Positions 1,185 through 3,603 of a stretch of 5,478 nt of DNA are shown in pieces; position 1 is the stretch's first letter; each line of letters opens with the position of its first letter. The notes under the pieces are model-generated. The model was not told the origin of the DNA and did not search any database. It was given only the letters and a program-made list of their open reading frames with translations. The position numbers and the translations under genes were made by a program. The stretch is from Promethearchaeota archaeon (GTDB lineage Archaea; Asgardarchaeota; Sifarchaeia; Borrarchaeales; Borrarchaeaceae): positions 1 to 5,478 of the forward strand of contig JBHLOP010000147.1 in the NCBI GenBank assembly GCA_048940375.1, in the 5' to 3' direction.

Positions 1185-1275
1185 TTTAAACTTATCATGT
1201 AAAGTTTATTTGCTTCGTTTATATGAAATAATATATAGTTGAGTTTTGAGGGAGGCGCTAAATCAATTGCAAACG

Positions 1276-1815
1276 ATGAAACGTGTGAAAGAAGGAGTTT
1301 TACAACTGCTTGAAAACAGAAGATATGAAGTCGAATCGATCGAGGAGACCGAGTCAGAAATTGATATCCTCGCAAAAAAGAAAGAGGATAAAAAAGAACT
1401 AAAGTTTTTAGTACGCATTCCTAGTAAAAATGTTGTCGGCGTTGCATTAGTACGAGCATTAGATAAAGCAATGAAAAAACATAGTGTAGATCAGGCGCTA
1501 CTTGCAACTTTAGAAAGATATACGCCTGCCGCAAAAGCTGAATCAAAAAAGAAGAATATTGAATTACTTCCAACAAAGTATCCCATTTTTAATATTTTTG
1601 AGCATGTTCTTGTTCCAAAACATGAATTATTGTCTGAAAAGGAAGCGAAAGAAGTTTTAAAACACTATAACATTAGCAAATTTCAACTTCCTGCGATTAA
1701 AGCAGCGGATCCCGCAGCAAAAGCTATAGGTGCAAAACCTGGACGAATAGTAAAAATATATCGAGAAAGCCCAACTGCTGGTTTACACATCGTCTATCGA
1801 GTCGTTGTAGAATAG
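1276..1815 (+). CDS. rpoH: DNA-directed RNA polymerase subunit H (Rpo5/Rpb5 homologue), long form with an N-terminal Rpb5-N-like (restriction-endonuclease-fold) domain
   Basis: The C-terminal ~75 aa (nt ~1582-1812), [75 protein letters not shown], match the archaeal RpoH / eukaryotic Rpb5 C-domain signature (H-x-LVP-x-H, QLP-x-I, DP-x-A, Y-R). An additional ~105-112 N-terminal residues are in frame with no stop. The start is unresolved: TTG 1246 (track), TTG 1267 (11 nt after the SD-like GAGGGAGG at 1248-1255) or ATG 1276. The stop is TAG 1813-1815. Confidence 0.85.
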
Positions 1816-1870: not shown

Positions 1871-2809
1871 ATTCGCATTACGTTGTTAAGTGGAGGGACT
1901 GGTACTCCAAAATTACTACAAGGTCTTATAAGGCTTGTTTCTGAGGAAAATTTAACAATAATTTGCAATACTGCAGATGATTACTATTTTTATGGTCTTT
2001 ATGTCTGTCCAGACATTGATTCTGTACTCTACTGCCTAAAAAGTTTTTTAGATGAAGAAAAATGGTGGGGGATAAAAGGCGACACTTTTAACTGTCTTGA
2101 AATGTTAAAACTATATGGTTATGATCCATGGTTTCAATTAGGGGATCGCGATCTTGCGCTTCATATCCATAGAACGCGTTTATTAAATGAAGGTCTTTCT
2201 TTATCTGAGATTATCAATGATGTCTGCATGCGCTTGAATATAGCGCCTCATGTAATTCCCATGACTGATCAGAAAGTCACCACAATGGTCTTCACTGACA
2301 AGGGTAAATTGAATTTTCAAGAGTTTTGGGTACGGGAACATGCAAATGTAAAGGTATTCTCAGTCGAATTTGAAGGAATTAGTAGAGCAGAGCCAACCCA
2401 AGATGTAATTGACTCAATTATAGAAAGTGATGCCATAATTATCGGACCAAGTAATCCTGTTACCTCAATAGGGCCTATTCTGGAAGTACAAGGTGTCAAA
2501 ACAGCCTTAGAAAGGACGCAAGGCATGAAAATCGCGATTTCTCCTATAATCGGAGAACAACCATTGAGCGGTCCTGCAGGTCAACTTATGGAGACTCAAA
2601 ATCTTAGTGTTTCTCCGTATGCTATTGCAAAGATCTATTCGAACTTCTTAGACGTTCTAATTATACATAGTACTGATAAAGGATTGGTTCCTCAAATTGA
2701 AGAACTTGGAATTTCTGTGGTTTTAACTAACATCATAATGAAGAGCCTTGATGATAAAATCAATCTAGCCCAAGAAATCCTTCGTTTAATTGAGGAAAAA
2801 ACATGTTAA
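1871..2809 (+). CDS. cofD: 2-phospho-L-lactate transferase (LPPG:FO 2-phospho-L-lactate transferase), coenzyme F420 biosynthesis
   Basis: The protein shows the CofD family pattern throughout: LSGGTGTPKLLQGL, CPDIDSVLY, WWGIKGDTF, FQLGDRDLALHIHRT, IPMTDQKVTT, IIGPSNPVTSIGPIL, ISPIIGEQPLSGPAGQLM. The frame opens after TAG 1808-1810. I place the start at ATT 1871 from SD spacing and N-terminal completeness (IRITLLSGGTG). The track start, TTG 1883, is the conservative alternative. The stop is TAA 2807-2809. Confidence 0.9.
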   Translation: MRITLLSGGTGTPKLLQGLIRLVSEENLTIICNTADDYYFYGLYVCPDIDSVLYCLKSFLDEEKWWGIKGDTFNCLEMLKLYGYDPWFQLGDRDLALHIHRTRLLNEGLSLSEIINDVCMRLNIAPHVIPMTDQKVTTMVFTDKGKLNFQEFWVREHANVKVFSVEFEGISRAEPTQDVIDSIIESDAIIIGPSNPVTSIGPILEVQGVKTALERTQGMKIAISPIIGEQPLSGPAGQLMETQNLSVSPYAIAKIYSNFLDVLIIHSTDKGLVPQIEELGISVVLTNIIMKSLDDKINLAQEILRLIEEKTC

Positions 2810-3603
2810 AGTTGCAAAATCCTGCAATACTATCCGCAATAGCAGGAGTTACTAATGGCGATTTTTGTGCACGAGTTGCGAAAGCTGGGGCTGGTATGAT
2901 CACTCTTGGCGGATTTAATTTTGATAAAGCAACGCTTAGCGCAGCAAGACTGATCACAACTAGAGAAAGGCCAGAATTTATTATAGCTCTCGAGGAACTG
3001 CCAGAATATACTGAACGTCAAGTTTCAGTTGCCCGTGAAGGAAAAACTCTCGTAAATATAAATATACGTGTTTCCTCAAGAAATGGATTACTTCTGGCAG
3101 CAAAAATATCACAGGATTCAGGTGCGGATGCTCTTGAACTAAATGCACATTGTAGGCAACCGGAAATTATTGATCTAGGAACTGGACAAGCACTCCTAAA
3201 AAACTCCAAAAAATTGTGTCAGTGGATTAAAATCCTCAAAAATAATGTGAATATCCCTCTAATTGTTAAAATTCGGGCAAACATTGTTGATGAAGTGACT
3301 TTAGTGAAAAAGATAGTTATAGCAGGTGCAGATGCTATTCATGTCGATGCAATGAAACCTGGATATCCTTACGCTGACTTAGACATTATAAAAAGGATAT
3401 CCTACAATGTCGATACATTTTTGATAGGTAATAATTCTGTAAAAGACATTAATTCAGCAATACAAATGCTGAACGCCGGTGCCGATGCATTTTCTATTGC
3501 TAGGGCTGCTATTAATAATCCTGAAATAGTTGGGCAAATTGGGAACGCTATAATGAAAGAATTCAAAGAAAGATTAAAAAAACGTTACATTCTCTTTAAG
3601 TAA
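2803..3603 (+). CDS. Archaeal Dus/NifR3-like FMN-dependent TIM-barrel oxidoreductase (dihydrouridine-synthase / dihydroorotate-dehydrogenase superfamily); precise substrate unknown
   Basis: 266 aa. The motif LELNAHCRQPEIIDLGTGQALL parallels the Dus motif (D/E)-x-N-x-G-C-P...G-x-G-x-x-L-L, including the catalytic Cys. This is followed by IPLIVKIR (the FMN-contacting K-x-R strand), GADAIHVDA, and LIGNNSV...GADAFSIARAAINNPEI (the phosphate-binding C-terminal strands). As I recall, short, exclusively archaeal NifR3-related TIM-barrel proteins form a recognised family. ATG 2803 overlaps the cofD stop (ATGTTAA), and GAGG lies 7 nt upstream. Confidence 0.7.
   Translation: MLKLQNPAILSAIAGVTNGDFCARVAKAGAGMITLGGFNFDKATLSAARLITTRERPEFIIALEELPEYTERQVSVAREGKTLVNINIRVSSRNGLLLAAKISQDSGADALELNAHCRQPEIIDLGTGQALLKNSKKLCQWIKILKNNVNIPLIVKIRANIVDEVTLVKKIVIAGADAIHVDAMKPGYPYADLDIIKRISYNVDTFLIGNNSVKDINSAIQMLNAGADAFSIARAAINNPEIVGQIGNAIMKEFKERLKKRYILFK

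Follow-up and report, generated by a model that had tools for sequence, protein, structure and literature searches.

Does the lower jaw that Rpb5 contributes to eukaryotic RNA polymerases have an archaeal ancestor? This question is raised by a 5,478-nucleotide stretch of DNA (hereafter, the window) from a Promethearchaeota archaeon of the family Borrarchaeaceae (contig JBHLOP010000147.1 of assembly GCA_048940375.1), which encodes an unusually long form of the polymerase subunit H, known as RpoH or Rpo5. RNA polymerases I, II, and III of the eukaryotic nucleus all contain Rpb5, and every archaeal or eukaryotic polymerase structure solved to date shows the RpoH/Rpb5_C domain docked to the largest subunit. 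Archaeal RpoH is described in reviews as having no N-terminal domain (PMC6690254, PMC3906176), and a 2012 survey of PD-(D/E)xK proteins found Rpb5_N in eukaryotes only (PMC3424549), in agreement with the premise of an original prediction, made from the letters of the window, that the Rpb5 jaw is generally treated as eukaryotic. That prediction read the gene as a full-length, eukaryote-style Rpb5 with a nuclease-dead jaw-like domain. We are now quite confident that the gene encodes a two-domain, Rpb5-like Rpo5 and that an archaeal RpoH fusion is the most likely ancestor of the eukaryotic Rpb5 jaw.

The open reading frame (ORF) of 179-189 residues in the original prediction proved to be real. 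It occupies positions 1246-1815 on the forward strand and translates into 189 residues from a TTG codon or 179 residues from an in-frame ATG at 1276. The long-form rpoH (rpo5) gene is placed here at 1276-1815 (179 residues plus stop), and its product scores 107.8 bits with the NCBIfam RpoH equivalog model NF007129, for which the cut-off is 83. The C-terminal part, residues 105-179 (1588-1812, forward strand), corresponds to the RpoH/Rpb5_C assembly domain: PF01191 (RNA_pol_Rpb5_C) matches residues 105-177 over profile positions 1-73 of 73 (E 1.8e-30, 105 bits, cut-off 23.5), and among Protein Data Bank (PDB) sequences, Pyrococcus Rpo5 matches this domain (E 4.8e-25, 91.7 bits, 75 residues). 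At the level of sequence, these C-terminal 75 residues are the universal RpoH/Rpb5_C domain, and their orthology suggests that the gene product is subunit H (Rpo5) of the archaeal RNA polymerase and would be incorporated into the enzyme as such. The solved archaeal Rpo5/H chains are as short as had been claimed (77-84 residues), and they align with window residues 105-179 only. The remaining N-terminal part, residues 1-104 (1276-1587, forward strand), has the predicted fold of a dead Mrr-type restriction endonuclease, an assignment based on Pfam, on an AlphaFold2 model, and on profile and fold matches to Rpb5. The Mrr likeness noted in the original prediction is borne out by two Pfam families whose cut-offs these residues pass on their own: Mrr_cat (PF04471; E 2.6e-12 and 47.3 bits, cut-off 21) and NA-iREase1 (PF22722; 38.8 bits, cut-off 27). 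In the whole protein, Mrr_cat matches residues 6-98 (E 1e-11, 45.4 bits) and NA-iREase1 scores 36.9 bits (E 3.9e-9).

The similarity to eukaryotic Rpb5 extends across both domains. For these comparisons, the human RPB5 sequence was verified as identical to PDB chain 29tk_E and the yeast sequence to 1dzf_A, and the K. phaffii, S. pombe, and Arabidopsis sequences were taken from printed alignments of PDB searches. BLASTP aligned the window protein with human RPB5 in a single collinear alignment (residues 1-177, 29% identity, 201 columns, E 1e-27), in which HVLVPKH is paired with HELVPEH, the human segment QGMTPSAKQ is also matched, and every segment pairing previously made by eye is reproduced. 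Order and spacing had been said to match those of Rpb5 apart from a missing loop after helix 1, and the largest gap in the alignment (14 residues) lies there. With phmmer, query residues 27-177 aligned continuously with residues 56-209 of human Rpb5 and 54-205 of the Arabidopsis protein. The eukaryotic insert itself, about 21 residues that separate helix 1 from the first strand (~30-55 in the human protein), is absent from the window protein and from all aligned archaeal long forms.

We modeled the full-length protein with AlphaFold2 from an alignment of 51 sequences (A1), obtaining a mean predicted local distance difference test score (pLDDT) of 89.8, a predicted template modeling score (pTM) of 0.72, and an N-domain with the order alpha-beta-beta-beta-alpha-beta-alpha. 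When this model was compared with the PDB using Foldseek, ranks 1-34 were all either full-length eukaryotic Rpb5 chains or one of two homologues from African swine fever virus (ASFV), with query-based template modeling scores (TMq) of 0.68-0.84 over about 200 columns and E values down to 3e-15. Human, yeast, and K. phaffii Rpb5 gave TMq values of 0.80-0.84 with root-mean-square deviations (rmsd) of 3-4 Å over about 200 columns. Archaeal Rpo5 chains matched the C-terminal half only (TMq 0.40, rmsd 0.9-1.4 Å), and the Mrr-like protein AF1548 first appeared at rank 49. In the model, both domains and their mutual arrangement are Rpb5-like, as the proposed fold would have it. A separate model of the N-domain (pLDDT 92.9) has the same order of secondary structure, and its Foldseek matches comprise AF1548 (1y88), many Rpb5 chains, and MspJI (4f0p) at similar E values of ~2e-3 to 7e-3.

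To characterize the N-domain alone, we aligned 30 N-domains with the RpoH part removed (A2). Searched against PDB sequences, the A2 profile found the Rpb5 of Drosophila (E 1e-5), human (1.8e-4), Arabidopsis (2.6e-4), and S. pombe (0.036), and no nuclease chain at E <= 10. With hhalign, the N-domain matched the human Rpb5 N-domain at 93.8% probability (E 1.8e-7). Profile-profile comparisons were made with a eukaryotic Rpb5_N profile of 5 verified sequences and a set of 51 true Mrr nucleases. The eukaryotic profile matched the N-domains of named Asgard archaea at 97.2% probability (E 3.4e-11) over 101 columns that include helix 1, those of Bathyarchaeia at 92.6% over 62 columns, and the Mrr nucleases at 90.1% (E 1.6e-6) over a mere 39 columns. 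Each archaeal N-domain group, in turn, matched the Mrr nucleases at E values of 1e-12 to 1e-22 over 64-98 columns. Because the profiles match in both directions, the archaeal RpoH-fused domain bridges the Mrr nucleases and the eukaryotic jaw, and sequence comparison shows the N-domain and the eukaryotic Rpb5 jaw to be homologous.

In a library of 1.8 billion representative proteins, the A2 profile had 352 matches at E <= 0.001. The best 150 of these, which we classified, comprise many diverse long RpoH proteins, true Mrr nucleases, and one eukaryote-type Rpb5 (P0165, 456 residues), which has three tandem Rpb5_N domains (PF03871) followed by one Rpb5_C. Other architectures were also observed. 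The same kind of N-domain occurs in a family without RpoH_C (P0108, P0111, P0120, P0124, P0125, P0134, P0143, and P0187), whose members may be relatives of the jaw domain that stand free of the polymerase subunit. In the longer sequences, such as P0124, P0125, P0143, and P0111, the N-domain is followed by another kind of C-terminal region, which contains Cys. In P0101 (481 residues), P0139 (436 residues), P0171, and P0132, at least two stretches matching the N-domain profile precede a single RpoH_C.

We then aligned the window N-domain with other long forms and 8 true Mrr nucleases to compare their active-site motifs. The true nucleases read G-x-D-h-h ... V-Q-x-K ... V-G ... F-T-x-x-A, and the window protein reads E-I-D-I-L ... 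V-R-I-P ... V-G-V ... Y-T-P-A-A. The first catalytic Asp is kept as Asp29 within E-I-D-I-L (1360-1362, forward strand), and the (E/Q)xK position is occupied by R47-I48-P49 (1414-1422, forward strand). The N-domain is predicted to be nuclease-dead because (E/Q)xK is replaced by R-I-P, and the missing motif likewise rules out that an active Mrr nuclease has been fused to RpoH; we class the domain as a derivative that has lost activity rather than as a nuclease. The nuclease-dead reading of the original prediction therefore stands, but the residues it had assigned to this position, V-R-I, are one position off. The same site has (V/A)-R-(I/F)-P in Heimdall- and Hod-type forms, W-C-(I/V)-P in Bathyarchaeia forms, and F-F-P in the Rpb5 of human and Arabidopsis, so that a Pro at the former catalytic Lys position is common to the archaeal long forms and these eukaryotic proteins. 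The Bathyarchaeia forms have neither the catalytic Asp nor (E/Q)xK. A further motif, T83-P84-A85-A86 (1522-1533, forward strand), is the counterpart of the "TPSA" of Rpb5 and aligns with yeast T117-P118-S119-A120, an element (TPSA/P118) reported to contact DNA (PMC6690254); T83 is invariant and A86 nearly invariant among the 30 N-domains.

The long form is not a Borrarchaeum curiosity. The survey of archaeal RpoH proteins above 150 residues that had been suggested shows them to be widespread in Asgard archaea and Bathyarchaeia. The window comes from Candidatus Borrarchaeum. Its long RpoH shares 95-96% of its residues with the counterparts in Candidatus Borrarchaeum weybense and B. yapensis, and identity is 88% for an incomplete locus of Candidatus Sifarchaeum, also an Asgard archaeon. 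Almost all remaining loci retained from a species-level genome collection are labelled Bathyarchaeia or Bathyarchaeota. All scored loci (74 of 80) encode the long form, except a fragment at a contig end (L003). In total, we collected 212 long forms, which fall into at least 27 clusters when N-domains are grouped at 50% identity. Lineage names from these loci, from cluster look-ups, and from a profile search include Hodarchaeales, Heimdallarchaeota, Heimdallarchaeaceae, Kariarchaeaceae, Odinarchaeota, Hermodarchaeota, Promethearchaeota, and Bathyarchaeia; one long form lies in a complete 3.16-Mb Heimdallarchaeota chromosome (CP070760.1). The best 120 matches of a search with a Heimdall/Hod-type profile are all 158-333 residues long, and a search with a mixed profile (A3) returned almost exclusively Bathyarchaeia and no further lineage names. 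Two long RpoH genes of archaeal type (L065 and L073) are in metagenome-assembled genomes labelled bacterial (Candidatus Acidoferrum sp. and a Krumholzibacteriaceae bacterium) and are probably mis-binned archaeal contigs. We also observed that many Heimdall-type long RpoH proteins (220-333 residues; P0443, P0452, P0440, P0197, and L082:101-988) extend beyond the RpoH domain in a repetitive tail rich in K, A, P, and T (about five copies of "KKPAAKPKEAT" in one example), and that some of them match PF07382.

Gene order is conserved around several of these genes. The rpoH-cofD-dus-like(-cofC) order of the window is also found in L082 (101-3329) and L083 (6001-8928), which are two further Asgard assemblies, and loci L001 and L002 likewise have cofD and the Dus-like gene downstream in this order; at other Heimdall/Hod loci, rpoH adjoins an OST48/IFT52-like gene. 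A chimeric assembly or a frameshift, which the original prediction had wanted excluded, is ruled out because independent assemblies contain the fusion in more than 200 proteins, spread over those clusters, with a conserved linker and conserved synteny. None of the three outcomes that the original prediction had named as refuting it was observed. To place the eukaryotes, we built a neighbor-joining (NJ) distance tree of 47 sequences (183 columns, 200 bootstraps), in which the eukaryotes are monophyletic in 200/200 bootstraps. The Heimdall-labelled long RpoH proteins form two separate clades in this tree with different neighborhoods, one linked to cofD and the other to the OST48-like gene. The name Kariarchaeaceae occurs in both clades, and its two proteins come from different assemblies (L083 and L084), reflecting either paralogy or inconsistent taxon labels.

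The sequences themselves are already catalogued in databases, where they are held as "RNA polymerase subunit H" with precomputed Mrr_cat matches and where JGI names two of them RPABC1. We found no description of a long archaeal Rpo5, and hence no such interpretation of these sequences, in the open-access papers and preprints searched. A 2026 survey of domains in archaeal small subunits reports long Rpo6 forms and no long Rpo5 (PMC13257274), and a list of eukaryotic signature proteins in Hodarchaeales names RPB8 and others, with Rpb5 not among them (PMC10307638). Annotation presents a problem here: some public records shorten long rpoH to the canonical short RpoH. Several NCBI records are trimmed to 72-91 residues in this way (P0224, P0225, P0226, and P0320, from the clusters of P0089 and P0115). 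The start of P0224 (OGD57471.1, 81 residues), "MPPTLPTF", corresponds to the internal "IPPTLPTF" of a 182-residue form, and P0320 (91 residues) begins at an internal Met of P0115. In such records, the N-domain seems to have been cut off by a choice of start site guided by the short RpoH model.

We propose that RpoH gained an inactivated Mrr-type domain by a fusion that took place in archaea and is now widespread in Asgard archaea and Bathyarchaeia. With moderate confidence, we extend this to a broader scenario in which the Rpb5 lower jaw is not a eukaryotic invention: the Mrr-RpoH fusion would predate eukaryogenesis, survive in Asgard archaea (including Hodarchaeales and Heimdallarchaeia) and Bathyarchaeia, and have been inherited by eukaryotes, which added the helix-1 insert later, making it an overlooked informational "eukaryotic signature" partly hidden by trimmed annotations. 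Several results weigh against common descent, and some of them would suit an independent origin, in which archaeal RpoH and eukaryotic Rpb5 each gained an inactivated Mrr-like N-domain and resemble one another through their common Mrr family. With Pfam RNA_pol_Rpb5_N (PF03871), the window protein has a weak match of 14.5 bits over residues 3-46, missing the cut-off of 27, as opposed to 45 bits with Mrr_cat; the best archaeal long form, P0117, reaches 17.8 bits, and none passes. This model has 89 positions, and it is matched by the N-domains of the eukaryote-type P0165, most fully where residues 7-88 align with profile positions 3-87; by our own alignment, the matched span of P0165 contains the eukaryote-only insert. 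Because no archaeal form reaches the Pfam cut-off, we file long Rpo5 as a homologue of the Rpb5 jaw and not as a member of PF03871. The Rpb5_N match anticipated in the original prediction was thus obtained with the N-domain profile, which finds Rpb5 in the PDB at 1e-5 to 2.6e-4, but not with the Pfam model. In the protein library, moreover, true Mrr nucleases with an intact D...(E/Q)xK match the archaeal N-domain profile at ~1e-7, compared with 1e-5 for P0165, and the eukaryotic Rpb5_N profile matches the Borrarchaeum-group N-domains weakly (62.9% probability, E 7e-5, 85 columns). By fold alone, the modeled N-domain is equidistant from Mrr-type nucleases and Rpb5_N, with AF1548 and MspJI level with Rpb5 in the search, and the inter-domain geometry of the full model may partly reflect the training of AlphaFold on Rpb5 structures. 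Mrr-like domains are also mobile and recur in several architectures, either without RpoH_C or as tandem copies. Finally, the best archaeal candidate for the sister of the eukaryotes is recovered in only 46/200 bootstraps of the NJ tree, which singles out no particular Asgard lineage; the proposal that the protein is an evolutionary intermediate is in this respect supported by the profile comparisons but not by the tree. We nevertheless regard independent fusion as unlikely. Domain order and linker length are the same in both groups, collinearity runs from helix 1 to the C-terminus, and the model with both its domains can be superposed on Rpb5 over its whole length. The eukaryotic N-domain profile covers helix 1 and 101 columns in Asgard N-domains, compared with 39 in Mrr nucleases; (E/Q)xK is lost in both, with Pro at the Lys position; and the long form is present in those archaeal lineages usually placed nearest to eukaryotes.

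Direction of transfer and function were weighed in the same way. Archaea could have acquired the long form from eukaryotes or from giant viruses, which also have a two-domain Rpb5, with subsequent spread among sediment archaea. A viral two-domain homologue does exist (ASFV chain 8q3b_E, TMq 0.68 against the model), and identity to the window protein is higher for Bathyarchaeia forms (46-54%) than for Heimdall-type forms (37-45%), which would fit some lateral movement among archaea. Yet the eukaryote-specific insert is absent from all archaeal forms, the archaeal N-domains are much nearer to prokaryotic Mrr (1e-12 to 1e-22) than eukaryotic Rpb5_N is (1.6e-6), the C-domain resembles archaeal Rpo5 (91.7 bits, 75 residues) more than it does eukaryotic Rpb5, and the family is deeply diversified, with synteny conserved within Asgard archaea; we consider such a transfer very improbable. 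It is equally hard to credit that the protein is a paralogue whose RpoH-like domain serves another purpose, regulatory or defence-related, with a canonical short RpoH serving the polymerase. This would fit the fact that its N-domain families, Mrr_cat and NA-iREase1, are known from restriction and conflict systems, and a second rpoH copy in the same genome is possible. Long rpoH also never adjoins rpoB in the examined loci, a further point against a polymerase subunit: among the 74 scorable loci, no rpoB-sized ORF was found within 1.5 kb downstream, the sole large downstream ORF (1553 residues, at L019) being a subtilase. However, lack of linkage to rpoB seems normal in Asgard archaea, as Rpo5 is far from Rpo1 in Helarchaeota and Thorarchaeota, judging by accession numbers (PMC13257274). 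The C-domain also meets the equivalog-level RpoH model of NCBI and is 61% identical to Pyrococcus/Thermococcus Rpo5, the catalytic motif is absent, and the neighbors are cofD, dus-like, Iso_dh, and V4R genes, with no defence genes nearby.

If the favored reading of an archaeal fusion inherited by eukaryotes holds, the N-domain would be expected at the lower jaw of the polymerase, a position suggested by orthology and by the geometry of the model. There, it could contact downstream duplex DNA through the T-P-A-A loop, and its net charge of +6 would be compatible with this. The estimated net charge of the N-domain varies in the family: it is about +10 in the main Bathyarchaeia cluster, +6 in Borrarchaeum, and about 0 to -2 in Hodarchaeales/Heimdall-type forms, with -3 in yeast and -7 in human. 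The jaw of Rpb5 contacts downstream DNA and binds TFIIB, HBx, RAP30, Bud27/URI, and RSC (PMC6690254, PMC13257274). By analogy, the archaeal N-domain might assist in holding downstream DNA while the open complex forms and in the early stages of elongation, and it could offer a docking surface for regulators, like Rpb5. If this reading is true, the origin of one more feature of eukaryotic polymerases moves back into archaea, and the long forms would trace, in sequence, the path from a restriction-endonuclease domain to a polymerase jaw. What the jaw does would then be testable in a simpler archaeal system; complementation experiments with chimeric Rpb5/RpoH proteins exist, and the long forms would be natural intermediates for such chimeras (PMC3906176).

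As to the start of the gene, ATG 1276 is preferred because of the pattern of upstream conservation and the start of its homologues. Compared with two Borrarchaeum genomes, the window sequence is invariant from "CAAACG", just 5' of this ATG, onwards, and the 10 nucleotides preceding it are wholly different. The closest full-length homologues, P0008 and P0009, also begin with MKRVKEG. ATG 1276 is thus the likelier start. TTG 1246 is less likely, because the 10-nucleotide block that differs entirely among Borrarchaeum genomes lies inside its extension. Between rpoH and the divergent membrane-protein gene upstream, we also observed a segment (1130-1260) that is ~95% identical to the two Borrarchaeum genomes, conserved like coding sequence. 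Within it lie TATA-like stretches rich in A/T as well as a GGGAGG box, and its sole variable part is the 10-nucleotide block just 5' of the ATG.

The rest of the window, which has a GC content of ~36%, contains several genes assigned with Pfam. Directly 3' of rpoH lie cofD (1883-2809, forward strand) and a gene for a Dus-like TIM-barrel protein (2803-3603, forward strand), which overlaps cofD by 7 nucleotides (2803-2809). These two are conserved neighbors of long rpoH in other Asgard genomes and functionally not part of the polymerase subunit; in this arrangement, a polymerase-subunit gene travels with F420-biosynthesis genes. Further genes encode a V4R-domain protein, a member of the isocitrate/isopropylmalate-dehydrogenase family (Iso_dh), and a FixH/YtkA-like membrane protein. 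The last of these, a predicted membrane protein at 586-1116 on the reverse strand, combines a weak FixH/YtkA-like domain of Ig type with one N-terminal and one C-terminal hydrophobic segment, the latter leading into a poly-basic end (RKKKKRKRK). No tRNA and no Rfam family were found in the whole window, and positions 1-585 contain no ORF above 69 residues.

Compared with known systems, the window protein is closest in architecture to eukaryotic Rpb5 (RPABC1/ABC27). In each, a jaw-type N-domain with a restriction-endonuclease fold is joined through a short linker to an Rpb5_C assembly domain; both have a dead nuclease site in which Pro replaces the former Lys, and both have a T-P-(S/A)-A motif. 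The archaeal protein is nevertheless shorter (179 compared with 205-215 residues) and lacks the insert of ~21 residues; its N-domain is basic (+6), whereas eukaryotic N-domains are acidic (-3 to -7), and it is still recognizably Mrr-like, with a C-domain nearer to archaeal Rpo5. With canonical archaeal Rpo5 (Pyrococcus 8cro_H, Thermococcus 4qiw_H, and Sulfolobus 2waq_H), it shares an orthologous C-domain, 61% identical to the Pyrococcus/Thermococcus proteins in structural alignment at an rmsd of 0.9 Å. These solved proteins of 77-84 residues consist of the C-domain only, and the window protein differs in its 104 extra N-terminal residues, which are predicted to fold as a domain. With Mrr nucleases, the N-domain shares the fold, the first Asp, the V-G turn, and (F/Y)-T-x-x-A, but it has R-I-P in place of (E/Q)xK, and its partner is an RNA polymerase subunit rather than DNA-recognition or NTPase modules. 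It likewise differs from NA-iREase1, an inactive restriction-endonuclease domain, in that the NACHT association naming that family is absent here and its partner is RpoH_C.

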